A stretch of DNA of 64,000 bases from Candidatus Vogelbacteria bacterium (GCA_903864935.1 CAIPHT010000005.1:9867-73866), one strand, 5' to 3'; positions 3,979 through 64,000 are shown, counted from the first letter of the stretch. Numbers and translations are program-made. Notes: generated from the sequence alone by a model not told the origin.

Positions 3979-4008
3979 ACGTTTTTGTCCCCGGTCTTTT
4001 TTTATGTC

Positions 4009-4036
4009 TTGACATTGTGCGTACATTGTATATACT
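4009..4036 (+). promoter_or_regulatory. promoter TTGACA-N16-TATACT for the dinJ-yafQ module, overlapping a GTACA..TATAC palindrome (likely operator)
   Basis: Consensus -35 and -10 hexamers 10 nt upstream of the antitoxin ATG. Confidence 0.5.
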
Positions 4037-4045
4037 TAAGACATT

Positions 4046-4294
4046 ATGACGACTCTAAATATAAGGATTGAGGAGAAAGCTAAAGCTGATGCCAATAAGA
4101 CCCTGGCTCGTCTTGGCCTTGATATGTCGAGTGCCGTGAAGCTTTTTCTCTATCAAGTGGTAAAGGAGGATGGCTTACCTTTCTTGCCGACCAACAATCT
4201 CTCTACTATCAAAGCGCGTTTTGATGCCCAGGTGTCTGAGGCAAAGAAAAGCCGTGGGTTTAAAACTGCTAAACAAGCTCTTAAGGGACTATAG
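4046..4294 (+). CDS. dinJ: type II antitoxin, DinJ/RelB family
   Basis: MTTLNIRIEEKAKADANKTLARLGLDMSSAVKLFLYQVV is a ribbon-helix-helix antitoxin signature. It is immediately followed by a YafQ-like ORF. Confidence 0.75.
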   Translation: MTTLNIRIEEKAKADANKTLARLGLDMSSAVKLFLYQVVKEDGLPFLPTNNLSTIKARFDAQVSEAKKSRGFKTAKQALKGL

Positions 4295-4300
4295 TTAATT

Positions 4301-4588
4301 ATGACTTTTCTCATTAAACGAACTAAGGATTTTGAGAAGTCTTTCAAAAAAATTAGCCGTTCTGGTTTGAATTTAAAAACAAGAGAGAAATTAGAATTTA
4401 TTATTGATGCTATTGCTTGCGAGAGAAGATTAGACATAAAGTAAAAGAATCATAGATTAAAAGGGGAATTAAAAGATTACTACGAATGTCATGTTGTCCC
4501 AGATCTTTTGCTTATTTACAAAATAGAAGAGGAAGTAAATTTCTTGATTTTGGTGGATATAGGAAGCCATAATCAATTGTTTGGGTAG
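4301..4588 (+). pseudogene. yafQ: YafQ/RelE-family toxin gene interrupted by an in-frame TAA (4442-4444)
   Basis: N part MTFLIKRTKDFEKSFKKISRSGLNLKTREKLEFIIDAIACERRLDIK, then a stop, then in the same frame KNHRLKGELKDYYECHVVPDLLLIYKIEEEVNFLILVDIGSHNQLFG. Together these match the YafQ consensus (...GxxKGxRECHIxPDxLLIYK...). The catalytic C-terminal half lies after the stop. Confidence 0.65.
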
Positions 4589-4635
4589 CCTTTTGTCCCA
4601 GGTCTTTTTTTGTGTTAAGTTGTATTTGTTAATTT

Positions 4636-4825
4636 CGGAGTGTAGTGTAACGGTAACATCCACGACGCGCCCCCACACCTTTTTAACGGGGCATAGTGTA
4701 ACGGTAACATCCACGATTCGGGTTCGTGGGACTCTGGGTTCGAGTCCCAGTGCCCCGACAGGAACGTAAAAAAGGTGTGGGGGTGAAGGTTCGTGGGACT
4801 CAGGGTTCGAATCCCTGCACTCCGA
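4636..4825 (+). tRNA. tRNA-Pro-like gene whose anticodon loop holds a 125-nt insertion (4666-4790) containing a complete tRNA-Pro(CGG)
   Basis: 5' part CGGAGTG-TA-GTGTAACGGTAACATC-CCACGA (4636-4665) and 3' part TCGTGG-GACT-CAGGGTTCGAATCCCTG-CACTCCG-A (4791-4825). Acceptor is perfectly complementary and the D-arm is identical to the nested tRNA. The insert has 10-bp perfect inverted repeats CCCCCACACC (4670-4679) and GGTGTGGGGG (4774-4783). Uncertain whether functional, spliced or a pseudo-tRNA. Confidence 0.5.
4687..4758 (+). tRNA. tRNA-Pro(CGG), nested inside the outer tRNA-Pro-like gene
   Basis: Acceptor CGGGGCA/TGCCCCG, anticodon stem CCACGA/TCGTGG, loop TTCGGGT (anticodon CGG), T-arm CTGGG-TTCGAGT-CCCAG, discriminator A. 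Confidence 0.8.
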
Positions 4826-4840
4826 CAAAGCGAAGCATTT

Positions 4841-5016
4841 GGCGGAGTGAGCGAGCCAACTGCTTGGCTTGCGTCTGGGATTCGAACAGCGGAGTGATAT
4901 TTTTTCAGCAGAAAAAATTAGCGAGCTGGTGCCTAGACAAAGTTTTGCGACGGCAAAACTTTAGTCGAAGGAGAATCCCTGCACCGTAGTAGTGATATTT
5001 CCTGCACTCCGACAAA
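4841..5016 (+). repeat. tRNA-flank mimic element copy B (~175 nt), immediately 3' of the outer tRNA-Pro-like gene
   Basis: Homologous to the minus-strand segment 9201-9354. It starts with a GGCGGAGTG acceptor-like 5' end and contains three hairpins: GCGAGCCAA-ctgc-TTGGCTTGC; TTTTTTC-agca-GAAAAAA; AAAGTTTTG-cgacggc-CAAAACTTT. It ends with GAATCCCTGCAC...TCCGACAAA, a direct repeat of the tRNA 3' end plus 4 nt of flank. Confidence 0.5.
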
Positions 5017-5091
5017 TTTCTTTACTTTTTCTCTCTTGTCGTTGATAATTGGGTGGGTTTTTGGGTCTCTATCAACAACAGGAGTTTTCTT

Positions 5092-5541
5092 ATGAATAAC
5101 ACGTCCGTTGCTATTGCGAGCGTTCAGCTTCAACGCTGGGCAACCATCCGTCTCAACCATTGCCGGTTGGAGACGGAATGGAGAGCGAGGTTTCGTTTTT
5201 CTCCCACAAGGAGAAACCTCTCTGCCCTTCCTTCGCTTACCCTTGGGGAGTATGTTATCGGTCTTGATCTCGAGGGAGGGAATTTTGACATCAGTTCAAG
5301 ACTCCCTCTTGAAGATTTTTCTCACGGGGTGGCAATCTATCTCTCGTCTCCTGATTGGGGAGAGGGCGAGGTGGATTCTGGGGCTGGGGTCTCGGGACGT
5401 TTCTTCCAAAGGTTCTATTCTTCTGAGGAAGAGAACCAGGGGCTCTCGGTCGGGGTGTTCCTTGATTTTCCTTCCCGACGAATTTGCCACTTTTTCTTCC
5501 GAGGAGAAAATGGGGGGATGGTGAGAAAAACTTTCAAGTAG
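5092..5541 (+). CDS. hypothetical protein (149 aa), or alternatively part of a structured non-coding region
   Basis: ATG with AGGAG 7 nt upstream, and a terminator right after the stop. However, three overlapping ORFs of similar length occur in different frames and strands here, and the region is rich in hairpins. Confidence 0.3.
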   Translation: MNNTSVAIASVQLQRWATIRLNHCRLETEWRARFRFSPTRRNLSALPSLTLGEYVIGLDLEGGNFDISSRLPLEDFSHGVAIYLSSPDWGEGEVDSGAGVSGRFFQRFYSSEEENQGLSVGVFLDFPSRRICHFFFRGENGGMVRKTFK

Positions 5542-39807: not shown

Positions 39808-39843
39808 CCGCCCAGGTTTCGGACTCACTTGAGGCCTGGGCGG
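39808..39843. repeat. GC-rich hairpin of the CCGCCCAGG...CCTGGGCGG family (3' of the HIT gene)
   Basis: CCGCCCAGGTTTCGGACTCACTTGAGGCCTGGGCGG. Related copies at 48441-48476, 54947-54986 and 59543-59580. Confidence 0.6.
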
Positions 39844-39859: not shown

Positions 39860-40276
39860 TTAAATTAAAGATTTTTTGATAGCTTCTTGAGTCTCGGCAA
39901 AATCTTCTTTGGTATAGCCACCTTGGCCATGCCAATGGATGAAACCGTCGCCGTCGAAGCGGGGGATGAGGTGTACATGGGAGTGGAAGACGAGTTGGCC
40001 GGCAGCCGGTTCGTTATTCCAACCAATATTTAAGCCATCGGCTTTGGTTCCGTCTTTGATTGCTCTGGCCAGTTTTTGTAAGACTGGGCCTAGTTTGATG
40101 AGAAGTTCTGCGGGTAGGTCGAAGAGGTTGCGGTGGTGTGCCTTAGGTAAGAGCAAGGTGTGGCCAAGATTAACAGGGTTGATATCGAGAACGGCCAGCC
40201 AGTCGTTATCCTCATAAACTTTGTCAGCCGGGATATCGCCGGCGATAATTTTGCAAAAAATACAGTCTGTTTCCAT
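39860..40276 (-). CDS. HIT-family (histidine triad) nucleotide hydrolase
   Basis: GHTLLLPKAHH...HSHVHLIPR: an HxHxHxx histidine triad with the N-terminal CIFCKII motif. Confidence 0.85.
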   Translation of the reverse strand: METDCIFCKIIAGDIPADKVYEDNDWLAVLDINPVNLGHTLLLPKAHHRNLFDLPAELLIKLGPVLQKLARAIKDGTKADGLNIGWNNEPAAGQLVFHSHVHLIPRFDGDGFIHWHGQGGYTKEDFAETQEAIKKSLI

Positions 40277-50031: not shown

Positions 50032-52173
50032 ATGCGTGACTATCCGCTCGATAAAGTTCGTAACTTCGGTATTATTGCCCACATTGACGCTGGTAAGACA
50101 ACTGTCTCCGAGCGTATTCTTTATTATACTGGTGTTTCTCATAAGATTGGTGAAGTTCACGAAGGGGAGGCGACCATGGACTGGATGGATCAAGAGCGTG
50201 AGCGTGGTATCACCATTTGTTCGGCTGCGACCACCGCTTTTTGGACACCTACCTATGATCTCCTAAATCCTGAGCGCAAGCACCGCTTGAATATTATTGA
50301 TACCCCAGGGCACATCGACTTCACTGTTGAGGTTAAGCGCTCTCTCCGCGTGCTTGATGGTGCTGTCGTTATCTTCGACGGTGTCGCTGGTGTGGAGCCT
50401 CAGTCTGAGACCAACTGGCGTTATGCTGATGAGGCTAAGGTTCCTCGTATGTGCTTCATCAACAAGCTCGACCGTATGGGTGCCTCTTTTGATAAATCCT
50501 ATCAGACCATTCTTGACCGTCTCTCTAAGAAAGCGGTTCGCACTCAGATCCCGATCGGCGTTGATTCTGAACACGAAGGCGTTATTGATTTGTTGAAGAT
50601 GAAGGGTTACCTCTTCGAAGGCGATAAAGGTAAAGAAATTAAAGAAATTGAGATTCCCGAGAAATATCTTGAGGATGCCAAAACTCTTCGCGCCGAGCTC
50701 GTTGAGCGTATTGTTGAGAATGATGACGCTCTAATGACCGATTTTCTTGAGGGTAAGGAGATTGCCATCGCTGATCTTAAGCGTGTTTTGCGCAAGGCGG
50801 TTATTGCTAATGAAATTTTCCCAGTCATGTGTGGTTCAGCTCTTAAGAACAAGGGTGTTCAGCTAATGCTTGATGCCGTTGTTGATTATTTGCCAAGTCC
50901 ACTCGACATGCCCGCTATCCACGGCTTCCACCCCGTCACTGGCGAAGAGGAATTCCGCAAGACCTCTGATGATGAGCATTTCTCTGCTCTTGCTTTCAAA
51001 ATGCAGGCTGACCCCTTTGTTGGGCAGTTGACCTTCTTCCGTGTCTACTCCGGCGTTCTTAAATCCGGTTCTTATGTCTACAACTCGATCAATGATGAGA
51101 AAGAGCGTGTTGGCCGTATCGTCCGTCTCCATGCTAACCATCGTGAAGAAGTTCCCGAGGTCTATGCTGGAGAAATTGCCGCTATCGTCGGATTGAAGAA
51201 TACCAAGACTGGTCACACCCTTTGTGACGAGAATTTCCCCATCGTACTTGAAGGTATCAAGATTCCTGAGCCGGTGGTGGAGATGCGCATTGAGCCTAAG
51301 ACCAAGGTTGACCAAGAGAAGATGGGTATTGCGCTTAAGAAACTTTCTGACGAAGATCCAACCTTCCGCATCAAATCTGATCCTGAGACTATGGAGACTA
51401 TTATTGCCGGTATGGGTGAATTGCACTTAGACGTTCTCGTTGAGCGTATGAAGCGTGAGTTTGGTGTAGAGGCGAATATTGGTAAGCCACAGGTCGCTTA
51501 TAAAGAAACAATCACTGCCGAGGCTGAGGCTGAAGGCAAATATGTTAAGCAGTCTGGTGGTAAGGGTCAATACGGTCACGTTCGTTTGCGCATTAAGCCG
51601 ATGGAGAAGATTGTTGACCCCGATGCTAAGGTGGCCAAGAACATTAAGCGTGAAGCTAATTTTGAATTCATCAATAATATTAAGGGTGGCGCTATCCCTG
51701 GTGAATATATCCCAGCCGTGGAGAAGGGTGTGCGCGAGGGTCTCTCCCGTGGTATCTCAGCGGGCTTCGAAGTTGTCGATGTCTCTGTCGAGCTCTATGA
51801 TGGTTCTTATCACGAAGTGGACTCCTCCGAAATGGCCTTCAAGATGGCCGGTTCGATGGCTCTCCAAGATGCCGCTCGTCGCGCCAAGCCAGTGCTCCTT
51901 GAGCCAATTATGAAAGTTGAGGTCGTGGTGCCTGAGAAGTTCATGGGTGATATCACTGGTCACCTCTCCTCCAAGCGTGGCCAGATTGAGGCGATGGAAG
52001 AAAGAGGCGACCTCAAGGTTATCAATGCCAAGGTACCGCTCTCCGAAATGTTCGGCTATGTCACCACTCTCCGCTCGATGACCGAAGGCCGTGGTAATTA
52101 CACAATGGAATTCCTCGAGTATGCCATTATCCCTAACTCGGTGGCCCAGGCGATTATTGAGGCGAGAAAATAA
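50032..52173 (+). CDS. fusA: elongation factor G
   Basis: G-domain [22 protein letters not shown]; domains II-V; 713 aa. Confidence 0.95.
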
Positions 52174-52327
52174 GACTTAAAAATTAGCCAAAGCCCCGCT
52201 GGATATGTCCATATCCAGCGGGGCTTTGCTTTTATTGACTTATCTTTGGATTTTGCTAATATAAGTGTTGCGTTTGTGCGCAGTCTTTTAATTTGTATTT
52301 ATTATTAATCGTTAATTTTAATTAATT

Positions 52328-53533
52328 ATGGCAGCAGAAAAATTTGATCGTTCCAAGCCACACGTTAACGTCGGGACCATTGGCCACGTTGACCACGGCA
52401 AGACCACCCTCACCGCCGCTATCTTGTACACTCTAAACATGGCCGCTGGCCAGGGTTATAGTGCACGCGTAGAAGGTGTTGATGGTATTGATAATGCCCC
52501 TGAAGAAAAAGCTCGTGGGATCACGATTGCTCTTCACCACTCCGAGTACGGTACTCCTAAGCGTCACTATGCTCACATCGACGCCCCAGGTCACGCCGAC
52601 TATATTAAGAACATGATCACTGGTGCTGCCCAGATGGATGGCGCTGTTATCGTTGTTGCTGCGACTGACGGTCTTATGCCTCAGACTCGTGAGCACATTC
52701 TTTTGGCTCGTCAGGTTGGTGTACCTAAGATTATTGTCTTCATCAACAAGTGCGATATGGTTGATGATCCTGAACTTATTGACTTGGTTGAGGAAGAAGT
52801 TCGCGAACTTCTTACCAAACAAGAATTCGATGGTGCCAACTGCCCAGTTATCCGTGGCTCCGCTCTTAAGGCTCTTGCCGCCACCAGTCTTGATGACGAG
52901 TGGTCCAAGAAGATTATGGAGTTAGTCCAAGCGATGGATGACTATATTCCTGATCCTGTTCGTGAAGTTGACAAGCCTTTCTTGATGCCGATTGAAGATA
53001 TCTTCTCTATTGAAGGTCGCGGTACTGTCGTTACTGGCCGTATCGAGCGCGGTGTTGTGAAGGTTGGTGAAGATGCTGAGATTGTTGGTCTTAAGGACAC
53101 TGTCAAGACCACCATTACCGGTATCGAAATGTTCAACAAGCAACTCGATGAGGGTATGGCTGGCGACAACGCTGGTATTCTCTTGCGCGGTCTTAAGAAG
53201 GATGATGTCACTCGTGGTCAGGTTTTGGCCAAGGTTGGTTCTATCACTCCTCACACCGAATTTACTGCTGAAGTTTACATTTTGACTAAGGAAGAAGGTG
53301 GTCGTCACACCCCATTCTTCGCTGGTTACAAACCACAGTTCTACATCCGTACCACTGACGTGACTGGTGAGGTTATCCTCCCAGAGGATGTGAAGATGGT
53401 TATGCCTGGCGATACCATTAGCATTACTGTTAAGTTGATTTCTCCGGTTGCCTTGGAAGACAAGCAACGCTTTGCTATCCGCGAGGGTGGTAAGACTGTT
53501 GGAGCCGGTGCCGTTAACAAAATTATTGCTTAA
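52328..53533 (+). CDS. tuf: elongation factor Tu
   Basis: [22 protein letters not shown], and the remainder canonical; 401 aa. Confidence 0.95.
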
Positions 53534-53566: not shown

Positions 53567-53941
53567 ATGGAAAACGAAACAAAAACAACCAAAGCCAAGA
53601 AGCCGGTGAAGGCCAAGAAGGATGAGGTAAAAGAATTGGCCAAGTTGCGCATCCGTGTCTCAGCTTATGAGCACAAAGTGCTTGATGCTTCGGTGAAGCA
53701 GATTGTCGATACCGCGACTCGTTATGATGGTAAGATTGAGGGCCCTATCCCTCTTCCTACTGAGTTCAAGAAGTATACGGTTAACCGTAGCTCCTTCATC
53801 GACAAGAACTCCCGCGAGCAGTTCGAAATGCGTATCCATAAGCGCTTGATTGATATCTCTAACCCCTCTCCGAAGTTGATTGAGAGCCTCACAAATCTCA
53901 ATCTTCCATCCGGAGTTAACATTGACGTAAAGATGATGTAA
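53567..53941 (+). CDS. rpsJ: 30S ribosomal protein uS10 with a Lys-rich N-terminal extension
   Basis: [37 protein letters not shown]... with an extra ~25 aa [12 protein letters not shown] at the N-terminus. Confidence 0.9.
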
Positions 53942-53962
53942 AGTCGCTCGACTTACTTCAGT

Positions 53963-54003
53963 TAAACAACACAGAAAACCCCTCCAGCGAGGGGTTTTCT
54001 TAC
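53963..54003. terminator. intrinsic terminator, near-identical copy of 20752-20797
   Basis: AAACAACACAGAAAACCCCTCCAGCGAGGGGTTTTC. Confidence 0.6.
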
Positions 54004-54412
54004 GCTCCGCATCGGCCATTTTGCCATTGTTCTCGCTTTGCTCGAACATAAATGATGGCAAAAACCGGCTGGCCGTAGCTACGCGAGGTTGTTTAACTGA
54101 AGAAGTCTCGCTTAACTGCAAACCGCCACTGAGAGGCGAAGCCTCTCAGTGGCGGTTTGCTAGAAACTCGAAACCCTACCAATCGGTAGGGTTTCTCGGA
54201 GGCCGGAGCCACTAATACATAAATTGTAATACTGGGCATTTGAAAGTCAAATCAAAAAAAAGGCCCCCGATGCAGACGTGTCTGCATAAGGGTCCTCTCC
54301 GTAGTGATGTGTATATTATACCCCCGGGTATTAAAAAGTCAAGAAATGGAAAACCCGCCGGCGGCAAGCGGGAAATCCGTTTGCGCGCGCGGCGGGTGTG
54401 TGGGCAGTGAAC

Positions 54413-54829
54413 TTAGCTGAGGTCGACGCCAGCCTCTTTCATGGCTTTGGCGAGGGCCTTTTCGACGAGGGTGGGAAGTTTTTTCTTGAACTCTTCGACC
54501 AGGGCCAGGGCTCTTGCCGGAAGGTCTTCAAGGTGAGATCTCTTCAACTCGTCACCGTCCCTTCTGTGCTTCAGTGAAATCTTGCTCATCTCGGCGCAGA
54601 GGATTTTGACCTGCTCCAATTCCTGGAGGTCCTCTTTCGGGATGTCCTTGCTGAGAAAATGGTATTTCGAGGCCATGTCTCTGCCGGCATCTTCCACTGT
54701 GTGCACCAAACGCCAGTCGTCTTTCCCTTCCCAGTTGGTGAGTCTCTTGAGGGGGTTACCGAAGTGTTCTGTTGAGCGTGTTGGTTGGCTTCGGTATTCT
54801 TCAACTAAACGCCTGAAGTTTATCATCAA
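54413..54829 (-). CDS. hypothetical protein (138 aa), GC-richer, inserted between rpsJ and rplC on the opposite strand
   Basis: Own consensus promoter (54902-54930, minus), RBS AAGGAGAA, and several downstream terminator hairpins (54120-54400). Confidence 0.5.
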   Translation of the reverse strand: MMINFRRLVEEYRSQPTRSTEHFGNPLKRLTNWEGKDDWRLVHTVEDAGRDMASKYHFLSKDIPKEDLQELEQVKILCAEMSKISLKHRRDGDELKRSHLEDLPARALALVEEFKKKLPTLVEKALAKAMKEAGVDLS

Positions 54830-54901
54830 CTTTCTCCTTCTTCTTTCTGACCTTATCTCAAAAGCACCCTACTTGTTCGGGCACCTTACTCTCTATAATT
54901 A

Positions 54902-54930
54902 AGTATAGCACAATAGGTTCTATATGTCAA
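54902..54930 (-). promoter_or_regulatory. extended -10 sigma70 promoter TTGACA-N17(..TGC)-TATACT on the minus strand
   Basis: Reverse complement reads TTGACAtatagaacctattgtgcTATACT; drives the 54413-54829 gene. Confidence 0.6.
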
Positions 54931-54946
54931 TGGCTCTACATTCAGA

Positions 54947-54986
54947 CCCCGCCCAGGTCTCGGGCGACCTTGAGGCCTGGGCGGGG
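54947..54986. repeat. GC-rich hairpin CCCCGCCCAGGTCTCGGGCGACCTTGAGGCCTGGGCGGGG between divergent promoters
   Basis: Same family as 39808, 48441 and 59543. Confidence 0.6.
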
Positions 54987-55003
54987 GAAAGGAGGGGTAA
55001 ATA

Positions 55004-55032
55004 TTGACTTTAAATGACATTCTGGTAGTATA
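55004..55032 (+). promoter_or_regulatory. putative promoter TTGACT-N16-TAGTAT for the rplC-rplB segment
   Basis: Hexamers read by eye; weaker than the others. Confidence 0.35.
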
Positions 55033-55067
55033 AACCAGAGCTCGTAGGGGCTATTATTTTTACTTTT

Positions 55068-55721
55068 ATGAAATTCATTCTCGGCAAAAAGGAATACATG
55101 ACCCAGCTCTTCGATGAGTCTGGTAAGGTTGTCCCTGGGACGGTTGTTTCGGTTGGGCCGATGTCTGTTCTAGAGATTAAGAAAGGCAAGCCTTCTACGA
55201 CTAGATCCAAGACTGGTACTTACGATTCAATGGTTATTGGTTATGGTGAGCGCAAACTCTCTAATGTTAATAAGCCTCAGAAAGGTTTGATTAAGAAGGC
55301 CCTGGCTGATAAGGAAAAGGGTTTTGCCGTTATTCGTGAGTTCAATAATAAGAAAAGCGAGTTACCAGCTGTTGAAGTTGGCTCAACTATCGATGCCTCG
55401 GTCTTCGCTGTCGGCGATAAGGTGGTTGTGAGCTCTATTTCTAAGGGTAAGGGCTTCCAAGGTGTCGTCAAGCGTCACGGCTTCAAGGGTGGACGTCGTT
55501 CTCATGGTCAGAAGCACTCTGAGCGTGAGCCAGGTTCTATCGGTGCTGGTGGCAAACAACGTGTTCTTCCTGGTATGCGCATGGGTGGCCGTATGGGTAC
55601 TGATCGTATTACTGCTAAGAATTGCATCGTTTCCCGTGTTGATGCCGAGAAGAATTTGATTTTTATAAAGGGGGCCATTGCCGGTCGCAAGGGGACGTTG
55701 GTTGAGATAATGAGCAAGTAG
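55068..55721 (+). CDS. rplC: 50S ribosomal protein uL3
   Basis: Canonical L3 sequence (..GKGFQGVVKRHGF.GG...HG...). Confidence 0.92.
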   Translation: MKFILGKKEYMTQLFDESGKVVPGTVVSVGPMSVLEIKKGKPSTTRSKTGTYDSMVIGYGERKLSNVNKPQKGLIKKALADKEKGFAVIREFNNKKSELPAVEVGSTIDASVFAVGDKVVVSSISKGKGFQGVVKRHGFKGGRRSHGQKHSEREPGSIGAGGKQRVLPGMRMGGRMGTDRITAKNCIVSRVDAEKNLIFIKGAIAGRKGTLVEIMSK

Positions 55722-56419: not shown

Positions 56420-56447
56420 TTCGATAAACTCACTATAAATAATTATT

Positions 56448-56750
56448 ATGTCTAAGATTGGCAAAGAAAATAAAACCCAGATTGTCCTGAAGTCACCTCG
56501 CGTCACCGAGAAGTCGACCGATTTGTCTGTCCGGACGAACCCCGCTTATGTCTTCGAAGTTGCTCGTGAGGCCACCAAGCCGATGATTGTTGCCGCTTTT
56601 GAAGCGAAGTATAAGGTCAAGCCGGTCAAGGTCAACATTGTTAATTTGCCAGCCAAGAAGACCATGGTCCGCGGTAAGCGTGGCTCTAAGAGCGCGATCA
56701 AGAAGGCGATGGTTTTTATTAAAGCTGGTGAGAAAATAGAAATTGTCTAA
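56448..56750 (+). CDS. rplW: 50S ribosomal protein uL23
   Basis: Canonical L23. Confidence 0.9.
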   Translation: MSKIGKENKTQIVLKSPRVTEKSTDLSVRTNPAYVFEVAREATKPMIVAAFEAKYKVKPVKVNIVNLPAKKTMVRGKRGSKSAIKKAMVFIKAGEKIEIV

Positions 56751-57591
56751 TATGAAAAAATACGCCCCAACAACTCCATCCCGTCGCAACATGACCACGA
56801 TCAACTATCGTGAGTATTTGACCGTTTCTGAGCCACATAAGCCTCTCACCAAAGGGGTGAAGCGAGATGTTGGCCGTAATGGTGATGGTCGCATCACTGT
56901 CCGTCACAAGGGGGGTGGACACAAGCGCCTCTATCGCGACATTGATTTTAAATATACTAAGGTTGGTATCCCGGCCAAGATTGAGACTGTGGAGTATGAT
57001 CCTAATCGCTCTGGCTTCATTGCCCTTGTCTGTTACAAGGATGGGGCTCGTGCTTATCACTTGCTTCCTAAGGAGCTCAAGGTTGGTGATGTTATCTTGA
57101 ATGATGCTAGCGCTGATGTGAAGACCGGCAACCGTTTACCACTTTCTAAAATTCCTGTTGGTACCTTTATTTACAATATCGAGACCAAGCCGGGGAGTGG
57201 AGCTAAGTTTGTCCGTTCGGCTGGTTCTTATGCTGAGGTTGTCTCTCATGATGCTGGCTATACCGCCATCAAGATGCCTTCAACTGAAGTTCATAAATTA
57301 CTTGATACCTGTTCCGCTTCGATTGGGGCCGTTTCTAATGATGAACACAAATTAGTTAAGTATGGTAAGGCCGGCCGTTCTCGCTGGAAGGGTATTCGCC
57401 CAACTGTCCGAGGCACCGCTATGAACCCAGTAGATCATCCATACGGAGGAGGTGAAGGTGTCCAAGGCCGAGGTACTCGTCGTCCTAAGACCATGTGGGG
57501 TAAGGTTACCGGTGGTAAGAAGACTCGTCACCCTAAGAAATACTCTAACCACCTCGTTGTTTCTCGCCGTAAGGTTGGGAAAAGAAAGTAA
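56743..57591 (+). CDS. rplB: 50S ribosomal protein uL2
   Basis: Canonical L2 (..GGGHKRLYR.., ..RGTAMNPVDHPYGGGEG..). Confidence 0.93.
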   Translation: MSNMKKYAPTTPSRRNMTTINYREYLTVSEPHKPLTKGVKRDVGRNGDGRITVRHKGGGHKRLYRDIDFKYTKVGIPAKIETVEYDPNRSGFIALVCYKDGARAYHLLPKELKVGDVILNDASADVKTGNRLPLSKIPVGTFIYNIETKPGSGAKFVRSAGSYAEVVSHDAGYTAIKMPSTEVHKLLDTCSASIGAVSNDEHKLVKYGKAGRSRWKGIRPTVRGTAMNPVDHPYGGGEGVQGRGTRRPKTMWGKVTGGKKTRHPKKYSNHLVVSRRKVGKRK

Positions 57592-57602
57592 AAACTCAGA
57601 AC

Positions 57603-57645
57603 TGCCCTTGGCCTTCGGTCAAGGGCAGTTTTACTTTTCCCCCTT
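57603..57645 (+). terminator. intrinsic terminator CTGCCCTTGGCCTTCGGTCAAGGGCAG + TTTT immediately after rplB (inside the S10 operon)
   Basis: Perfect 9-bp stem plus a T-run. Confidence 0.6.
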
Positions 57646-57750
57646 TTTTTCTTTTCCCTCATGTCCCTCAATGCTATTATTAACCTAGGCCTAAAGTGCC
57701 TAACGTGTTTTTATTATAAATTTATTAGTAACCAATTTTTTATTAAACAA

Positions 57751-59511
57751 ATGAAAAAGTATCTTTTTGGAGCCCTCTTGGCCTTAGCGCTAGTTGTTGC
57801 TCCTTTTGTGTCTAGTGCGGCAACTACCCCTGTGGCAAATCAAGGCAAGCCAGTTGTTAAGTTGGCCACCGGGTCAGTATCTCTAAAAGATGGGCGGGTT
57901 GAAGCCGTTTTTAATGGTTACGTTTCCTCTTCTGGCGGGGAGGCCTACATTGATAAGAACAATCCCTTTAACGTTCGCCTGATTAATTATTCGGGAAAGG
58001 GCCTAAATAATAATAGTTGTAAAGTTGTGTCATATGATTATGATAAAAATTTGTCTAGCGTAAAGGGTAAATGGGGGCAATTAATTACAGTTTTGAAAAA
58101 TGGCACAAATGCTCGATATAGAGTTGTGGTTAGTTGCGACACTAATGGGTTATTAGCTGGAGTTTACTATGCAGAATTATCCTATTTATATTATTGGCCA
58201 ACTATCATGAGTCAATATGGGGCTCATCTAAATATCAATAATAAGTCAAATGATTATGTTTATGTGTCTGGTGATAAATCATCCCCTTGGATTTCCAATG
58301 TAAATAATCCTGTTGAGAACGGAGGCAAAGTTGCTCTAAGTGGTTTCAATTTGGGTAATATTAACGCTGTCTATGTCGATGGTCTTCCGGTTTCCACTGA
58401 ACATAACACCTCTGACCCTAACAATCTTTCGTTTAATTTGGCAGAAGACCTTACTGTTGGTCATCATGAATTTCAAGTGGCCAACGTTAATGGGCGAAGT
58501 AATTTAGGCGACTTAATTATTAAACCCCGTGTTATTATTGTAAGCCTTCTCTTTGCTCCATCGACCTTTATCCCTACCAGTCAGACCCTTAAGGGGGGAG
58601 ACTCAAAGTCGATTATTGCGATTGATCTCAGCGTCTACAGGTCAAAGCTGGCTGTTAGCCGTTTAGATGTTCATTTTACCGAGCGCCCATGGCTTAACTT
58701 CAGTGAAGTTAGCTTAAGAGATATCAATGGTACGATTATTGCTCGCAAAACCTTATCAGGACCTAATGACGCGACAGAAGTCTCGGCTGGTTCTGAGTAT
58801 TTTGTTCGTTTTGATAACATTGATTATCCCGTTATTCCTGGTAACAAGTCTACTCTCGTTGCTTGGGCCAATGTCCGCCCTATTGCTAAGTTTACGGCTG
58901 GAGAGAAGGTTGGAGTTAGTATTCCTGCTGGTTCCGTCCAGTATTTTAGTGGCCTAAGCACGACGACTGTTGGCTTGGGTTCTGCTTTTCGGATTGGCGG
59001 GGCCTATGTCAATACTTTAACCATGCTTGATACGGTCTCCTCTCCGGTTATTACTCCAACCCCTGCACCAGTCACTCCAGTTACTACCGGTTCGGTTGTT
59101 ACTCCAACCCCAGTTTCAACTCCAGCCCCTACTACCGTTACGGCTGAAGTTTCCCCTCGCGTCTCGGCTATTGCCGGTAACCTTTACCCAGGTGGGTGGG
59201 TTAAGTTGAGTGGGGCTCGCTTAACGACGGACGTCAAAATTGTAGATAATTATGACCCTAGTAAGATTGTGGTGCCACTGAGCCTCTCCGATGTTAATGG
59301 TGACGGGACACGCATTGATTTCAAGTTGCCTTCGGATATGAAGATCGGGGCCTATTACCTTAATGTTTACAGCAAGACGGGCATGAAGAGCCCAACCATG
59401 CCTTTCCCAGTCACTGCCAAACCTGTCACTTCGGCTCAAGCTAAGGTTAACCAGCTCGCGGCCACGGCCAGTGCCCTACAGGCTATTCTTGATAAAATGA
59501 TGGGGCAGTAG
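57751..59511 (+). CDS. secreted surface protein (signal peptide, Ig/IPT-like beta domains, Pro/Thr-rich linker) inserted between rplB and rpsS
   Basis: MKKYLFGALLALALVVAPFVSSAA signal, PTPAPVTPVTTGSVVTPTPVSTPAPTT linker, and 586 aa of beta-rich sequence. The ATG at 57751 is preferred over the upstream extension. Confidence 0.6.
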   Translation: MKKYLFGALLALALVVAPFVSSAATTPVANQGKPVVKLATGSVSLKDGRVEAVFNGYVSSSGGEAYIDKNNPFNVRLINYSGKGLNNNSCKVVSYDYDKNLSSVKGKWGQLITVLKNGTNARYRVVVSCDTNGLLAGVYYAELSYLYYWPTIMSQYGAHLNINNKSNDYVYVSGDKSSPWISNVNNPVENGGKVALSGFNLGNINAVYVDGLPVSTEHNTSDPNNLSFNLAEDLTVGHHEFQVANVNGRSNLGDLIIKPRVIIVSLLFAPSTFIPTSQTLKGGDSKSIIAIDLSVYRSKLAVSRLDVHFTERPWLNFSEVSLRDINGTIIARKTLSGPNDATEVSAGSEYFVRFDNIDYPVIPGNKSTLVAWANVRPIAKFTAGEKVGVSIPAGSVQYFSGLSTTTVGLGSAFRIGGAYVNTLTMLDTVSSPVITPTPAPVTPVTTGSVVTPTPVSTPAPTTVTAEVSPRVSAIAGNLYPGGWVKLSGARLTTDVKIVDNYDPSKIVVPLSLSDVNGDGTRIDFKLPSDMKIGAYYLNVYSKTGMKSPTMPFPVTAKPVTSAQAKVNQLAATASALQAILDKMMGQ

Positions 59512-59542
59512 AGTATTGAGATTGTCCTGAAATTAAGAAAAC

Positions 59543-59580
59543 CGCCCAGACCTCTAGTTTCCCGAGGTCTGGGCGGTTTT
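59543..59580 (+). terminator. intrinsic terminator of the CCGCCCAG hairpin family (CCGCCCAGACCTC...GAGGTCTGGGCGG + TTTT)
   Basis: 13-bp stem plus a T-tract after the surface-protein gene. Confidence 0.65.
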
Positions 59581-59616
59581 TGCTTGCCCCGTGGGGGTGA
59601 AGTCCCTCTACGGGGT

Positions 59617-59644
59617 TTGACATTATCCCCAATTTTGCTATGCT
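59617..59644 (+). promoter_or_regulatory. promoter TTGACA-N16(..TGC)-TATGCT re-starting transcription for rpsS...rplE, followed by a leader hairpin GTCCGCC-gact-GGCGGAC
   Basis: Hexamers at 59617-59622 and 59639-59644, with about 100 nt of structured leader before the rpsS ATG. Confidence 0.5.
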
Positions 59645-59746
59645 ATCCCTAGCTCAAATAAGGGGCGTCTGTCCGCCGACTGGCGGACTAAATTTTGCTC
59701 GTCAGGGTGTGCCGGTAGGCCACTTCAACGGGCGTTTAAAATATTT

Positions 59747-60085
59747 ATGGCACGATCATTATCTAAGGGTCCCTATGTGGACGAAAAACTTTTAAAGAAA
59801 CTTGTCGGTAAGAAGGCAAGTGAATCTGGCGTAATTAAGACTTGGGCCAGACGTAGCCAAATCTCCCCAGAGATGATCGGCTTTACTTTTGGTGTTCATA
59901 ATGGCAAGAGCCACTTGGAGGTTTTCGTGACCGAAGAAATGGTGGGCCACCGCTTAGGCGAATTTTCCCCAACTCGCAAGTTTACCAAACACGGCGGTAA
60001 GATGCAGAAGGAGATAGAGCAGAAGAAGAAGGAGGCTGAGATTAGCGCGGCTAAAGCGGCTAAGGACTCCCCAGCTAAGAAATAG
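59747..60085 (+). CDS. rpsS: 30S ribosomal protein uS19 with a Lys/Ala-rich C-terminal extension
   Basis: Canonical S19 core (..GPYVD..L...........IKTWSR.S.I.PEM.G..F.VHNG..) plus a ~25 aa extension. Confidence 0.9.
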
Positions 60086-60110
60086 TTCGACCCGCTCACT
60101 ATAAATAATC

Positions 60111-60461
60111 ATGAAAGCTTTTCTTAAAAACCATCATCAGACTCCACGCAAGACCCGTCTCATCGCGGATCTTATTCGTGGCAAGAAGGTCTCGGTCGCT
60201 TTGGCTGAGCTTGATTTGGTAATTAAGAAGTCAGCGGCTCCAATCAAGAAGCTTATTGAGTCCGCCGTAGCGAATGCTAAATCTAATTTTAAGGCTAACG
60301 AGGAGGATCTCTATGTTAAGAATTTGACCGTCGATAAGGGTAATGTTATCAAGCGTTCTCAGCCGATGTCCCGTGGTCGCGCTTTCCCTATTCGTCACCG
60401 CTTGAGCCACATTCAAGTTGAATTAGAAGCTAAAAGCTCAAACCTTAACCCTAAAAGCTAA
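60111..60461 (+). CDS. rplV: 50S ribosomal protein uL22
   Basis: Canonical L22. Confidence 0.9.
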   Translation: MKAFLKNHHQTPRKTRLIADLIRGKKVSVALAELDLVIKKSAAPIKKLIESAVANAKSNFKANEEDLYVKNLTVDKGNVIKRSQPMSRGRAFPIRHRLSHIQVELEAKSSNLNPKS

Positions 60462-60465
60462 TATT

Positions 60466-61131
60466 ATGACACACCGCGTCCATCCATATGCACATAGACT
60501 CACTATCATTCGCGACTGGCAGTCACGTTGGTTTGGTAAGGGTCCTAAGTATGTTGAGTTCCTAAAGGCTGACGTTCTCCTTCGTGAGTATCTCACCAAG
60601 CGTTTGCGCGGTTTTTATGTTGATCGTGTTGATATTGAGCGCGGTGAGAATTTCTATAAAATAATTATCCGTACTTCTCGCCCTGGTATGATCATTGGCC
60701 GTGGGGGAGATGGTATTACTAAACTTAAGACTGAGATTATCTCCCAATTGTTAAAGACGGGGACCACTTTGCCTAAGGATGTTCAGGTTGATATCCAGGA
60801 GGTTAAAGAACCGGAGGCCAGCGCCGCTATTGTTGCTTATATGATTGCTGAGGGCTTAGAGAAGCGTTTGCCTTTCCGTCGTGTTTTGAAGCAGACGGTT
60901 GAGAAGGTTTTGAATAGCAAATCCGTGAAGGGAGTTAAGGTTACCTTGTCTGGCCGCCTTGGTGGTGCTGATATGGGTCGTACTGAGACCTTGCGCAAGG
61001 GTCAAGTACCGCTTCAGACTTTGCGCGCTGATATCGATTTTGCTCGTGAGAAGGCCTATATGTATTACGGCGTGACCGGTATTAAGGTCTGGATTTATCG
61101 AGGCGAGATTTTTAATACTGAGAATAAATAA
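60466..61131 (+). CDS. rpsC: 30S ribosomal protein uS3
   Basis: KH domain and C-terminal domain (..GIKVWIY.GE..). Confidence 0.92.
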   Translation: MTHRVHPYAHRLTIIRDWQSRWFGKGPKYVEFLKADVLLREYLTKRLRGFYVDRVDIERGENFYKIIIRTSRPGMIIGRGGDGITKLKTEIISQLLKTGTTLPKDVQVDIQEVKEPEASAAIVAYMIAEGLEKRLPFRRVLKQTVEKVLNSKSVKGVKVTLSGRLGGADMGRTETLRKGQVPLQTLRADIDFAREKAYMYYGVTGIKVWIYRGEIFNTENK

Positions 61132-61137
61132 ACTACC

Positions 61138-61554
61138 ATGTTATTACCAAAAAAAGTAAAATTCAGAAAGTGGCAGACGATGCGGACTAATCCTAATAAG
61201 ATTAAGACGGAGACTCGCGGGACTAAATTATCTTTTGGTAATTTTGGTTTGAAGGCTGAGACCCCCGGCCGTATTCGTTCTAACCAAATTGAGGCTGCCC
61301 GTAAGACGATTGCTCGCCAAATGCATAAGACCGGCAAACTCTGGATTCGTATTTTCCCCGATATGCCTTTTACTGCTAAAGCGGCTGAGGTGGGTATGGG
61401 TAAAGGTAAGGGAGATCCACAGGGTTACCAGATTCAAGTTTGGCCTGGCCGTTTGATCTTCGAAGTTGATGGTTTGACCGATGAGATTGCCAAGGAGGCT
61501 CTTCGCAAGGCCGGTGCTAAATTGCCTATTAAAACCAAAATAGTCAGTCGATAG
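61138..61554 (+). CDS. rplP: 50S ribosomal protein uL16
   Basis: Canonical L16 (..MLLPKKVKFRK.Q.MR..). Confidence 0.92.
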   Translation: MLLPKKVKFRKWQTMRTNPNKIKTETRGTKLSFGNFGLKAETPGRIRSNQIEAARKTIARQMHKTGKLWIRIFPDMPFTAKAAEVGMGKGKGDPQGYQIQVWPGRLIFEVDGLTDEIAKEALRKAGAKLPIKTKIVSR

Positions 61555-61570
61555 GGGAATAAATAAAAAC

Positions 61571-61750
61571 ATGAAGAAAACAGATTTTAAAAAAGAGACA
61601 GAGGCCGCGTTGAAGAAAACCCTTATTGAGAAGCGTGATTCTTTGGCTAAATTCAAGTTCGGCATGACTGGATCCCGCACCAAGAATGTCAAAGAAGGGC
61701 GCAATACTCGTCGAGATATTGCCAGAATCTTAACCGCCCTAAAAAAATAA
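61571..61750 (+). CDS. rpmC: 50S ribosomal protein uL29
   Basis: 59 aa (MKKTDFKKETEAALKKTLIEKRDSLAKFKFGMTGSRTKNVKEGRNTRRDIARILTALKK); below the ORF-track size cutoff but in the canonical position. Confidence 0.85.
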   Translation: MKKTDFKKETEAALKKTLIEKRDSLAKFKFGMTGSRTKNVKEGRNTRRDIARILTALKK

Positions 61751-61751
61751 T

Positions 61752-61997
61752 ATGAAAACAGAAATAGCAAACAAAAAAATATTAAAGGGAAAGGTTGTCT
61801 CGGACAAGATGGACAAGACTGTTGTTGTTGAGATTAAGCGCTTCGTTAAGCATCCTAAGTACGGCAAGTTCTTCAACCTCTCTAAGCGTCACAAGGCTCA
61901 TGATCCAGAGAATAAGGCCAAGATTGGAGATGAGGTTGAGATCCGTGAGTGTCGCCCAATGTCTAAAGACAAGCATTTCGAAGTAATTTATAAATAA
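61752..61997 (+). CDS. rpsQ: 30S ribosomal protein uS17
   Basis: Canonical S17 (..GKVVSDKMDKTVVV.., ..HDPENKAKIGDEVEIRECRP.SK.K.F.V). Confidence 0.92.
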   Translation: MKTEIANKKILKGKVVSDKMDKTVVVEIKRFVKHPKYGKFFNLSKRHKAHDPENKAKIGDEVEIRECRPMSKDKHFEVIYK

Positions 61998-62003
61998 ACT
62001 ACC

Positions 62004-62375
62004 ATGATTCAGCCACAATCCATTGTAAAAATTGCCGATAACACGGGCGCCAAGATTGGACGCGTCTTCAAGGTGCTTGGCAGTTCGAAGAAGCGCTATG
62101 CTCGGATTGGTGAGCTGGTTATTCTTTCCGTGCAATCTGCTGAACCTCGTAAGGCGGTTAAGAAAAAGGAAGTTCTTCGTGCTCTTGTTGTTCGTCAGAA
62201 GTCTCCCTTCCGTCGTGCCGATGGTACCTATCTCCGTTTTGACGAGAATGCCGTTGTGATTTTAGACAAGACCAAGCCTGAGCCACGTGGTGGCCGTATA
62301 TTTGGACCTATTCCTCGCGAGATTGGCGAATTGGGTTATCAGAAAATTGTGTCATTAGCGCCAGAAGTGGTATAA
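62004..62375 (+). CDS. rplN: 50S ribosomal protein uL14
   Basis: MIQPQSIVKIADNTGAK...; canonical. Confidence 0.93.
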   Translation: MIQPQSIVKIADNTGAKIGRVFKVLGSSKKRYARIGELVILSVQSAEPRKAVKKKEVLRALVVRQKSPFRRADGTYLRFDENAVVILDKTKPEPRGGRIFGPIPREIGELGYQKIVSLAPEVV

Positions 62376-62387
62376 AAAAATACGAGT

Positions 62388-62693
62388 ATGAAAATCAAAA
62401 AGAATGACAATGTAATAATCATCACCGGTAAGGACCGCGGTAAGCAGGGCAAAGTTTTGCGCGTGTTGGCGGAGGATGAGAAGGTCTTAGTGGAGGGGAT
62501 GAATCTTCGCAAGAAGCACCAGAAGCCTCGCAAAGAAGGGGAGAAGGGTCAGATGATTGATATGCCACATCCTGTTCATATATCTAATGTTGCCCTTTAT
62601 TGCTCAAGTTGTGGCAAGGGTGTTCGTATGGGCGCTAAGGTTAACGGCAAGAAGAAGATTCGCGTTTGTAAGAAATGCGGTAAAGAAATTTAA
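62388..62693 (+). CDS. rplX: 50S ribosomal protein uL24 with a C-terminal C4 zinc-ribbon variant
   Basis: KOW domain (IKKNDNVIIITGKDRGKQGKV) then ...YCSSCGKGVRMGAKVNGKKKIRVCKKCGKEI (CxxC-x17-CxxC) in place of the usual Cys-free C-terminus. Confidence 0.88.
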   Translation: MKIKKNDNVIIITGKDRGKQGKVLRVLAEDEKVLVEGMNLRKKHQKPRKEGEKGQMIDMPHPVHISNVALYCSSCGKGVRMGAKVNGKKKIRVCKKCGKEI

Positions 62694-63244: not shown

Positions 63245-63347
63245 ATATCGCTCAGGTTGTTGTTTATAAAACCTCGAAAAATCCCCCTAGCCGGGGCTTT
63301 TTTGTGCTATAGTAAATTAAGCAAATTAATAGTCTAATTATAAAATA

Positions 63348-64000
63348 ATGAAAAAATATTATGTTCTCGTTGCGATAATTATTGTTCTAGTCATTGCTGT
63401 TGTTTATTTCGCTTTTTTTAAAAAGGTGGGGCCTATTGAGCAGCCTGTGGTGACCTCGACTCCGGCACCTGTTCAAGAAAACCCAATTGTTAACGCTCCA
63501 ATTAAAACAACATTGCAAAAAGAAGGGTGGAGGACTTATGAAAATTCAAAATATGGTTTTTCTATTCAATATCCTTGCGATGAGAAGTGTCAGGCTGATT
63601 TACCAGTCCCATCTAAAAGTGATTATTTCTGGGAGACAAATTGGTTACCTACGGGAACAAGAGCTAGTGTTATTGTGAGCTCTTTTACTGATGAAAGCGT
63701 TAAAGCTTGGAATGACTCACTTAAAAACTCTGGCGAAGAAGCAGCTATCCCTTTTCAGTTTAGTTTGTCTTCTTTTAGAGAAGCTTTAAATTTACCTTTA
63801 AATTCGAAGTGTAAAATAGCCAGTTATTTTGGGGGTGATGTTTCCTTTGGCTGTAGCATTGTTTCGTTGGGAGGGAAGAAGGCTGTCAAATTCGATAACG
63901 GGGTCATTCATTCTTTTGATGGGGATCCTCATCAATACTATTATGTTAATCTTGGGGGAAATAATTGGCTAACTATTAATGAAGCTTACAATCTGATAGA
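63348..64000 (+). CDS. membrane-anchored hypothetical protein, 3'-truncated by the window end
   Basis: ATG at 63348; N-terminal TM (YYVLVAIIIVLVIAVVYFAFF); open to 64000 with no stop. Follows a weak terminator after rplE. Confidence 0.5.
   Translation, partial: MKKYYVLVAIIIVLVIAVVYFAFFKKVGPIEQPVVTSTPAPVQENPIVNAPIKTTLQKEGWRTYENSKYGFSIQYPCDEKCQADLPVPSKSDYFWETNWLPTGTRASVIVSSFTDESVKAWNDSLKNSGEEAAIPFQFSLSSFREALNLPLNSKCKIASYFGGDVSFGCSIVSLGGKKAVKFDNGVIHSFDGDPHQYYYVNLGGNNWLTINEAYNLI

Follow-up and report, generated by a model that had tools for sequence, protein, structure and literature searches.

A stretch of 64,000 nucleotides (nt) from Candidatus Vogelbacteria bacterium (GCA_903864935.1, CAIPHT010000005.1:9867-73866; hereafter the window, with positions counted from its first letter) carries on its + strand the str/S10/spc ribosomal cluster, within which the genes for the ribosomal proteins L2 (rplB) and S19 (rpsS) are separated by an interval of 2155 bp that holds one long open reading frame (ORF). 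This gene, here called X586, encodes a predicted secreted protein of 586 amino acids (aa). X586 is probably the occupant of a positionally conserved, fast-evolving and domain-shuffling surface-protein locus, which lies at an operon boundary specific to this lineage and possesses its own promoter and terminator. Both flanking genes are recognised by their Pfam families (Ribosomal_L2_N, E 3.5e-31, and L2_C, E 2.4e-50, for rplB; Ribosomal_S19, E 1.3e-33, for rpsS), the former being the last gene of the unit rplC-rplD-rplW-rplB and the latter the first of the unit rpsS-rplV-rpsC-rplP-rpmC-rpsQ-rplN-rplX-rplE.

Operon boundaries in the relatives of the window

The arrangement was compared in 80 GTDB species representatives, taken as the best rplB matches and sharing 64-81% L2 identity with the window, 81% being reached by the best of them. 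The rplB relatives point to an organism of the Patescibacteria (candidate phyla radiation, CPR) of the Paceibacterota/Parcubacteria type. Among these genomes rplB and rpsS are more than 300 bp apart in 42 of 57 loci, 23 of which have gaps above 1 kb (up to 6.5 kb), and in 14 more no rpsS is present within at least 3 kb. Gaps of more than 300 bp are also found at rplE-rpsN (20 of 33) and rpsJ-rplC (12 of 71), in a few loci at rplX-rplE (3 of 47) and tuf-rpsJ (1 of 70), and at none of the eight other measured junctions. The promoter-bearing junctions are the same ones that take cargo: the motif TTGAC[AT]-N16-18-TAnnnT, sought within 160 nt upstream of each gene and usually of the extended TGn type, precedes rpsS in 49 of 57 loci, rpsN in 25 of 33, tuf in 30 of 61, rplC in 9 of 72, and every other gene of the cluster in 0-2 loci. 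In addition, the rpsS motif is present in several loci with a gap of only ~100-150 bp, while three of the four loci with a gap below 90 bp lack it. Because the promoter is kept even in short-gap loci, rpsS..rplE would represent a transcription unit of its own, and the operon would have been split before the arrival of X586. A preliminary description of this stretch had proposed that the gene is an insertion that splits the S10 operon; with the junction open in most of the relatives and its promoter in place, the boundary appears instead to predate X586.

It can be proposed that in this lineage the ribosomal supercluster would be divided into the units tuf-rpsJ(-rplC..rplB), rpsS..rplE and rpsN.., and that the boundaries, chiefly rplB-rpsS and to a lesser degree rpsJ-rplC and rplE-rpsN, would admit genes that are foreign or variable, since a separate promoter serves each block downstream. 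Within the sub-clade of the window, the rplB-rpsS slot would be held by a secreted family that combines a signal peptide, tandem Ig-like modules (including IPT/TIG) and a C-terminal helix.

The cargo found at these junctions is diverse. At rplB-rpsS, the nearest relative (L002) carries a 1316-aa secreted enzyme of the GH9/CelD_N type, three others (L003, L042 and L016) carry PKD/Kre9/dockerin proteins, and an ABC transporter and a ResIII helicase occur elsewhere; type IV pilus and housekeeping blocks are met where the cluster is simply broken. Ten more distant relatives (L018, L022, L028, L032, L037, L041, L053, L061, L070 and L079) share in this gap a family of ~130-140-aa ORFs, in several of them as the last gene before rpsS. 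The one member scanned, that of L053, matches prokaryotic diacylglycerol kinase (PF01219, E 2e-31), and ORFs of this type appear to be a second positionally recurrent occupant of the slot. At rplE-rpsN, surface proteins with PG_binding_1 and/or IPT-like modules are present in L004, L005, L009 and L086, and in L005 and L086 the surface-protein gene is followed by a metallophosphoesterase-type gene.

Homologues of X586 at the same junction

Homologues of X586 occupy the same junction in at least ten other genomes or metagenome contigs. The gap protein of the second-nearest relative (L003) matches profile hidden Markov models (HMMs) of the X586 modules A1 (E 8e-20) and A2 (E 3e-16) and ends in the same C-terminal helix. 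Seven of the best HMMER matches were placed in their genomic context: six (P0004, P0005, P0006, P0007, P0008 and P0013) are encoded directly upstream of rpsS, with rplB on the other side where the contig is long enough, and the seventh (P0017) lies on a 2.5-kb contig that is uninformative. A scan of JGI/ENA metagenome contigs, with a 4-sequence alignment as query, added three loci (L094-L096), whose homologues are all directly upstream of rpsS as well. The synteny comparison suggested in the preliminary description thus reveals an arrangement that is ancestral within the sub-clade, which is the outcome that it had itself set against an insertion. Its view that a surface-protein gene in the S10 operon is highly unusual holds in comparison with textbook bacteria, whereas in this lineage the arrangement is ancestral and widespread.

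These homologues largely refute the idea that a recent horizontal insertion, be it an islet or the cargo of a mobile element, split an intact S10 operon in this very genome, and we regard such an event as quite improbable. It would be in line with the composition of module A of X586 (GC 0.394; GC at third codon positions, GC3, 0.327, about 2 standard deviations below the 0.47 +/- 0.07 of the window), with profile searches, which among the 80 GTDB loci find X586 modules in the rplB-rpsS gap of only L003 and L010, and with the single partial homologue returned by a word-indexed search. Against it stand, in addition to the homologues, the rpsS promoter of the relatives with its occurrence in short gaps, and a GC3 of 0.39 for the whole gene, merely ~1 standard deviation under the window mean. 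Composition as a test of foreign origin was not decisive, since module A alone deviates. Moreover, no integrase, transposase or recombinase ORF is found between 57592 and 59746, no direct or terminal inverted repeats flank X586 beyond the two terminator palindromes, and no tRNA attachment site is located near it, the closest tRNAs being more than 45 kb away; the locus thus lacks the hallmarks of a mobile element or genomic island.

Organisation of the X586 gene

X586 shares the strand of the ribosomal genes and starts 160 nt 3' of rplB (Table 1). Gene callers use an alternative start at an ATG at 57661, which gives a protein of 616 aa, the sole version on record. We prefer the start at 57751 because the homologues open at MKKY and because 57661 is located 5' of the likely -10 box. 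The features that the preliminary description had read in this interval, namely a 586-aa gene, an intrinsic terminator after rplB, a second terminator of the CCGCCCAG family and a consensus promoter followed by a structured leader before rpsS, are all recovered here.

Table 1. Positions of the features of the X586 locus, of the encoded protein and of the neighbouring ribosomal genes
Feature	Position	Strand	Remarks
X586 ORF	57751-59511	+	586 aa; start MKKYLFGALLALALVVAPFVSSA/ATT
rplB terminator hairpin and T-tract (predicted)	57598-57641	+	hairpin 57598-57632, then TTTTACTTTT; 16-bp stem
X586 extended -10 element TGCTATTAT (predicted)	57672-57680	+	weak -35
X586 terminator (predicted)	59537-59581	+	CCGCCCAG-type palindrome with A-run and T-run on either side; z -7.4 for 59537-59585
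rpsS promoter (predicted)	59617-59644	+	TTGACA 59617-59622, 16-nt spacer, (TG)cTATGCT, -10 TATGCT 59639-59644
rpsS leader	59645-59746	+	~96 nt; fold z -2.3
X586 signal peptide (predicted)	aa 1-23
X586 module A1	aa 28-165
X586 module A2 (IPT/TIG-like)	aa 166-260
X586 module B	aa 262-428
X586 Pro/Thr linker	aa 430-469 (59038-59157)		read from sequence
X586 module C (IPT/TIG-like)	aa 470-560
X586 C-terminal amphipathic helix	aa 561-586 (59431-59508)	+
fusA	50032-52173	+
tuf	52328-53533	+
rpsJ	53567-53941	+
rplC	55068-55721	+	then rplD, rplW
rplB (L2)	56743-57591	+	stop codon 57589-57591
rpsS (S19)	59747-60085	+
Interrupted junction rpsJ-rplC	53942-55067		minus-strand 138-aa ORF, several hairpins, promoter 55004-55031 for rplC
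Interrupted junction after rplE	63245-64000	+	terminator-like hairpin CCCCTAGCCGGGGCTTTTTT after rplE, then gene from 63349

Both predicted terminators consist of a GC-rich hairpin followed by a U-tract and are more stable than shuffled sequences: that of rplB folds with -26.5 kcal/mol (z -5.85, none of 200 shuffles being as stable) and that of X586 with -33.5 kcal/mol (z -7.4). Hairpins of the CCGCCCAG type occur three times in the window (39808-39843, 54949-54984 and 59542-59576), and one is present also after rplB in the relative L089. A further hairpin, AGAAAACCCCTCCAGCGAGGGGTTTTCT, together with ~200 nt around it, is found after rpsJ in the window (53947-54127) and after rplB in L089 (5230-5438), with 75% identity. 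Terminator modules of the intergenic regions apparently move, or are duplicated, from one junction of the ribosomal cluster to another.

The putative promoter of X586 belongs to a TGCTAWNAT pattern with seven matches in the window; the matches checked on the + strand lie 50-190 nt upstream of tRNA-Pro, ORF 1978, ORF 47805, tuf and X586. Taken together, these elements suggest a scheme in which the rplC-rplB transcript would terminate at the hairpin behind rplB, X586 would be transcribed from the extended -10 element up to its own palindrome, and transcription of rpsS..rplE would initiate anew at the TTGACA promoter, X586 being probably autonomous in its transcription.

The preliminary description had also raised a possible coupling of surface-protein expression to a ribosomal promoter context. 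In such a situation, X586 would be placed for co-expression with ribosomal proteins by read-through from rplC-rplB, tying the output of surface protein to growth rate. Its orientation and its short distance from rplB would suit this, as would the weak -35 of its promoter and the recurrence of surface-protein genes beside ribosomal blocks at three junctions of the clade. Nevertheless, the long-stemmed terminator placed right after rplB, the extended -10 element of X586 itself and the nature of the junction cargo in some relatives, which includes minus-strand genes and unrelated functions, argue against coupling; some read-through may still take place, but we consider placement for this purpose unlikely.

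A mis-assembly joining two loci, which the preliminary description had named as a possible refutation, can be set aside with near certainty. Contigs from metagenomes are sometimes chimeric in general, and nothing specific speaks for it here. The same gene order is found on two independently assembled contigs, one of 12.1 kb (ERZ1426711) and one of 6.3 kb from another sample (ERZ18660404, SAMEA6872943, L001), the latter collinear over 56420-62679 with 99.95% identity (3 mismatches in 6260 bp), and the arrangement recurs in relatives.

Divergence of the occupant between close relatives

The close relatives L089/L090 and L096 are nearly identical to the window in L2 (98%), S10 (99-100%) and L14 (98-99%), and their occupants of the rplB-rpsS slot differ deeply from X586. 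The L089-type occupant is a 392-aa protein accompanied by an extra 98-aa ORF, and the other measures ~550 aa, as estimated from a tblastn span (3632-5278). Apart from the signal peptide and the C-terminal helix, they have in common with X586 only one domain, which resembles module C (~46-51% identity). Identity of the signal peptide amounts to 64-84% over 25 aa, and in L084 the 5' untranslated region together with the first codons is 82% identical. Ribosomal-protein genes of the window and L089 differ by 0.016-0.07 at non-synonymous sites (dN) and by ~0.7-1.0 at synonymous sites (dS), compared with a dN of 0.42 in the ~90 alignable codons of module C, for an implied dN/dS of ~0.5 that by itself is no evidence of positive selection. 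The occupant thus changes roughly 6-25 times faster than the ribosomal genes at non-synonymous sites, with whole domains gained and lost.

One way to account for this variability is a recombination-driven cassette locus, in which the ribosomal genes and the conserved gene ends would act as homology arms and alleles or modules would be swapped between strains under diversifying selection by hosts or phages. We regard this as possible, though on balance doubtful. It would agree with the sharp limits of nucleotide homology between the window and L089, which stops at 57590, in the rplB stop codon, and resumes at 59693, in the rpsS leader; with the conservation of the gene ends (signal peptide and C-terminal helix) around a variable middle; with the difference in domain composition between genomes whose L2 is 98% identical; with the import of module B from a family living elsewhere; and with the heterogeneous GC3 of the three parts of X586 (0.33, 0.39 and 0.55). 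On the other hand, at the dS of the flanks unconstrained sequence would be unalignable anyway, the dN/dS of the shared module does not exceed 1, and the identities of the left and right flanks to L089 agree (84.0% and 85.0%), giving no sign of recent exchange.

The X586 protein

The N-terminus of X586, as judged by inspection, has the three parts of a Sec/signal peptidase I signal peptide, namely a charged n-region (MKK), a hydrophobic h-region (YLFGALLALALVVAPFV) and a small-x-small site (SSA/A). AlphaFold2 models residues 3-15 as a helix and the N-terminus is kept in the homologues, so that export by Sec is most likely. The Ig/IPT-like beta domains and the Pro/Thr linker that the preliminary description had recognised behind this signal peptide agree with inspection, with the homologues and with the predicted fold.

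Database searches with the protein had been suggested in the preliminary description. No significant match to X586 was obtained in Pfam, NCBIfam or the PDB sequences, and a word-indexed search of 5.8 billion proteins returned X586 itself and one partial match, perhaps, we would guess, with words of the Pro/Thr linker crowding the candidate list. An exhaustive HMMER search of 1.84 billion representatives yielded 96 homologues, which fall into three groups corresponding to module A (~20-260, which splits into A1 and A2), module B (262-~428) and module C with the tail (470-586). The IPT/TIG assignment of A2 and C is supported by transitive homology and by the predicted fold, not by a direct family match. 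Residues 159-273 of X586 align to 501-621 of P0070, which bears a TIG domain (PF01833) at 524-598 (E 5e-23), residues 443-558 to 36-143 of P0094 (TIG 61-138), and residues 449-556 to 8-109 of P0075 (TIG 28-97); X586 ~177-257 and ~475-560 correspond in this manner to bona fide PF01833 regions of homologues. Modules A2 and C are, moreover, mutually related.

The full-length AlphaFold2 model is all-beta, with a predicted local distance difference test score (pLDDT) above 90 in two stretches, residues 30-260 and 470-585, the latter ending in a helix (561-585). Module B, left unresolved in it, was modelled alone as a beta-sandwich (pLDDT 88, predicted template-modelling score 0.79). Foldseek relates the whole model to tandem Ig-like surface proteins and ectodomains, with the IPT-containing Ebf1, plexin and CGTase also among the PDB fold matches; those of module B are weak (the N-domain of GH123, the R domain of diphtheria toxin, cohesins).

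Module B is 35-45% identical to a domain that in 47 of 56 relatives stands behind an N-terminal PG_binding_1. PG_binding_1 is found as well in 13 of 39 relatives of modules A and C and is absent from X586 when tested with PF01471; PKD, Kre9_KNH, TIG, MG2 and dockerin domains occur in other proteins that share its modules. The two members with PG_binding_1 and module B that were examined (P0009 and P0010) reside at another locus, between recA-ftsK and rplJ-rplL. Because the family of module B resides at this other conserved locus, X586 would be a mosaic. As for the genomic position of these two members, their genes (L092 5001-6986 and L093 4890-6661) lie by recA-ftsK and the L092 contig extends to rplJ-rplL, so that a wall-associated protein gene again adjoins a ribosomal-protein operon.

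The C-terminal helix (..NQLAATASALQAILDKMMGQ) follows the family consensus SQ[ILM]A..L.AL..IL.QLK.Q over the last ~25 residues. Thirteen of the 96 homologues terminate in this motif, as do the proteins at the L003, L005 and L042 junctions. Among those that end in it are P0004-P0008, P0013, P0017, P0043, P0063 and P0069, secreted proteins of CPR that otherwise differ in domain content, and many helix-motif proteins have a similar Ala/Gln/Leu helix right after the signal peptide. None of the curated families searched here matches the motif, which may act as a signal for retention or oligomerisation. A lipobox is lacking, no Cys being present in the first 80 residues of X586, and so is an LPXTG motif with hydrophobic tail, the protein ending in the amphipathic helix (..ALQAILDKMMGQ). 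X586 most likely acts at the cell surface, with a putative role in adhesion, in glycan or host binding, or as an envelope component.

Several points weigh against the proposed surface-protein locus with its own promoter. The count of TGCTAWNAT, the pattern of the presumed X586 promoter, is not above chance in the window (7 observed against 3.5 expected). X586 displays no recognisable wall anchor of the types PG_binding_1, LPXTG, lipobox Cys or C-terminal transmembrane segment, and a Pfam hmmscan at E<=1 gives only Plug (0.062) and LPAM_1 (0.3), the latter the lipobox profile and insignificant, with no TIG. Occupancy of the junction is uneven, as the GH9 enzyme of L002 has no detected homology to X586 and the gaps of L004 and L005 are nearly empty. 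The sample comprises the 80 best rplB matches only, so that it does not set the phylogenetic limits of the split. Finally, because dS is near saturation with respect to the nearest informative relative, divergence in place is inseparable from replacement of the cassette.

The rpsS promoter and its leader RNA

The rpsS promoter, predicted to be of the sigma-70 type, matches 10 of 12 positions in addition to the upstream TG. In the leader, a terminator-like hairpin (59671-59688) is followed by TAAATTTT, and a 3' hairpin (59697-59733) by a U-rich tail. Among the GTDB relatives, only the five nearest retain the latter, with compensatory changes; its consensus comprises 13 pairs, 3 of them showing such changes, in 5 sequences. 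A covariance model of the 45-nt hairpin matches only the window and L002-L005, that is, its five training sequences, and because these alone are recovered the hairpin is specific to the sub-clade. Rfam gives no match at gathering score in the window, the interval 59500-59800 reaching a chance-level E of 5.8, and the same holds for L078.

In more distant relatives the corresponding element, located where the transcript begins, is a simpler hairpin, AGCUC-loop-GAGCU, with a U-run behind it. It is found in 38 of 49 rpsS leaders, in 6 of 9 rplC leaders (that of the window, 55036-55060, included), in 5 of 25 rpsN leaders and in none of 30 tuf leaders. In its alignment 92% of the cells pair, and covariation is modest. 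It takes the form (A)AGCUC-GUUAG-GAGCU, for instance at L078 9634-9655, of which the sub-clade of the window has the expanded 37-nt version. This hairpin is a candidate for a lineage-specific ribosomal-protein leader, attenuator or 5' stabiliser. The rpsN leaders of more distant relatives (L038, L039, L044, L069, L075, L080 and others) contain a different motif, GGUYUGAUCUGUGUUUCUCCUUAAGG, ~10-40 nt after the promoter, whose core CUCCUU is anti-Shine-Dalgarno-like and recalls the 3' end of 16S rRNA.

Other features of the ribosomal cluster

Three junctions are interrupted in the window itself: rpsJ-rplC, rplB-rpsS and the one downstream of rplE, the final gene of its unit, which ends at 63244. 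The minus-strand ORF at rpsJ-rplC (54413-54829) has no family match and is preceded by a strong predicted promoter (54930-54902, 11 of 12 positions and TG). More minus-strand promoter-like sites are located at 54342 and 54250, and a small non-coding transcript on this strand, from ~54305 to 53973, is possible. Stable hairpins are present at 53974-54000, 54118-54160, 54170-54197 and 54949-54984, without Rfam match. That this ORF might be a paralogue of another 138-aa minus-strand ORF (39860-40276) was rejected, as the two have no mutual similarity. The gene that begins at 63349 encodes a hydrophobic N-terminus (MKKYYVLVAIIIVLVIAVVYFAFF), has the second lowest GC3 in the window (0.295) and runs past the window end.

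With regard to tuf, an extended -10 element of its own (TGCTAATAT, 52254-52262) is found 66 nt 5' of the start. Because of this element and of the promoter motif seen at tuf in relatives, tuf-rpsJ(-rplC..rplB) appears to be a unit apart from rpsL-rpsG-fusA. A Shine-Dalgarno sequence is not recognisable before X586 (57751), rpsS (59747) or rplC (55068), and these AT-rich upstream sequences (e.g., TTATTAAACAAATG and AAAATATTTATG) suggest initiation independent of it in this organism.

Comparison with known systems

The canonical S10 operon (rpsJ-rplC-rplD-rplW-rplB-rpsS-rplV-rpsC-rplP-rpmC-rpsQ) forms in E. coli one transcript that is regulated by L4 at its leader. All eleven genes have the same order and orientation in the window, with the spc-operon genes next to them. 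Unlike the canonical operon, predicted terminators and internal promoters cut the cluster at rplB-rpsS in most relatives and at rpsJ-rplC in some, the next boundary lies at rplE-rpsN and not at rpsQ-rplN, non-ribosomal genes fill the cuts, and no S10/L4 or other Rfam ribosomal-protein leader was detected in the window.

With surface proteins and adhesins built from IPT/TIG and other Ig-like domains (PKD, Kre9_KNH, Big), X586 shares the predicted signal peptide, the tandem beta-sandwiches and the Pro/Thr linker, as well as the tandem Ig-like ectodomain fold and modules A2 and C that align to true TIG domains of homologues. It differs from them in staying below every Pfam threshold, in having two modules (A1 and B) without a named family, and in bearing the C-terminal helix motif in place of LPXTG, lipobox or transmembrane anchor. 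The best full-length structural match, SGBP-B of Bacteroides (PDB 6e57, 6e9b and 7k44; Foldseek E 1e-8, probability 1.0), is likewise a chain of Ig-like domains, but at 12% sequence identity and a TM-score of ~0.2 the fold class alone is in common; SGBP-B is a lipoprotein whose gene belongs to a polysaccharide-utilisation locus; X586 lacks a lipobox and has no neighbouring genes of that kind. With the wall-associated PG_binding_1 proteins of CPR/Parcubacteria (e.g., P0002 and P0009-P0032) the common part is module B, and the differences are the lack of PG_binding_1 in X586 and the other locus of the two members examined.

Hypervariable loci for surface structures such as capsule and O-antigen lie between conserved housekeeping genes. 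The junction described here resembles them by analogy, since conserved flanks enclose an occupant that differs strongly from one close relative to another and whose product is predicted to be exposed at the surface; unlike them, it consists of a single-gene protein cassette with ribosomal-operon flanks, for which recombinational exchange is hypothetical.

Significance

The re-segmentation of an operon and a variable surface-protein locus are each of a known kind, and it is the pattern at the level of the clade that is the most interesting outcome: cargo is admitted at three fixed junctions, whose promoters are conserved, and a fast-evolving, domain-shuffling family of surface proteins keeps its place at rplB-rpsS. 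We found no description in the literature of an rplB-rpsS split, of an interruption of S10 or of surface-protein cargo in the ribosomal clusters of CPR/Patescibacteria, although coverage was incomplete and this is weak evidence of novelty. A broader model can be put forward in a speculative spirit, as one that we think rather less apt to be right than wrong. Here the boundaries of ribosomal units of the Paceibacterota type (rplB-rpsS chiefly, and also rplE-rpsN and rpsJ-rplC) would be fixed harbours for diversifying surface-protein cassettes, with the ribosomal genes and the conserved signal-peptide and C-terminal-helix ends as homology arms for the exchange of alleles or modules; the variants so produced would adjust attachment to the host, or evasion, in these episymbionts, the C-terminal helix would be a retention or assembly signal, and the AGCUC hairpin leader a lineage-specific regulatory RNA.

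The S10 cluster ranks among the most conserved gene orders of prokaryotes and routinely serves as a contiguous marker block in phylogenomics and binning of CPR genomes. Its lineage-wide re-cutting affects operon prediction, scaffolding checks based on marker genes, and ideas on ribosomal regulation in reduced genomes. In addition, the rplB-rpsS junction offers a positional handle on fast-evolving surface proteins of uncultivated episymbionts, which are nearly invisible to homology search, as the outcome of the Pfam and word-indexed searches with X586 illustrates. The surface proteins encoded at this junction are obvious candidates for determinants of host attachment.

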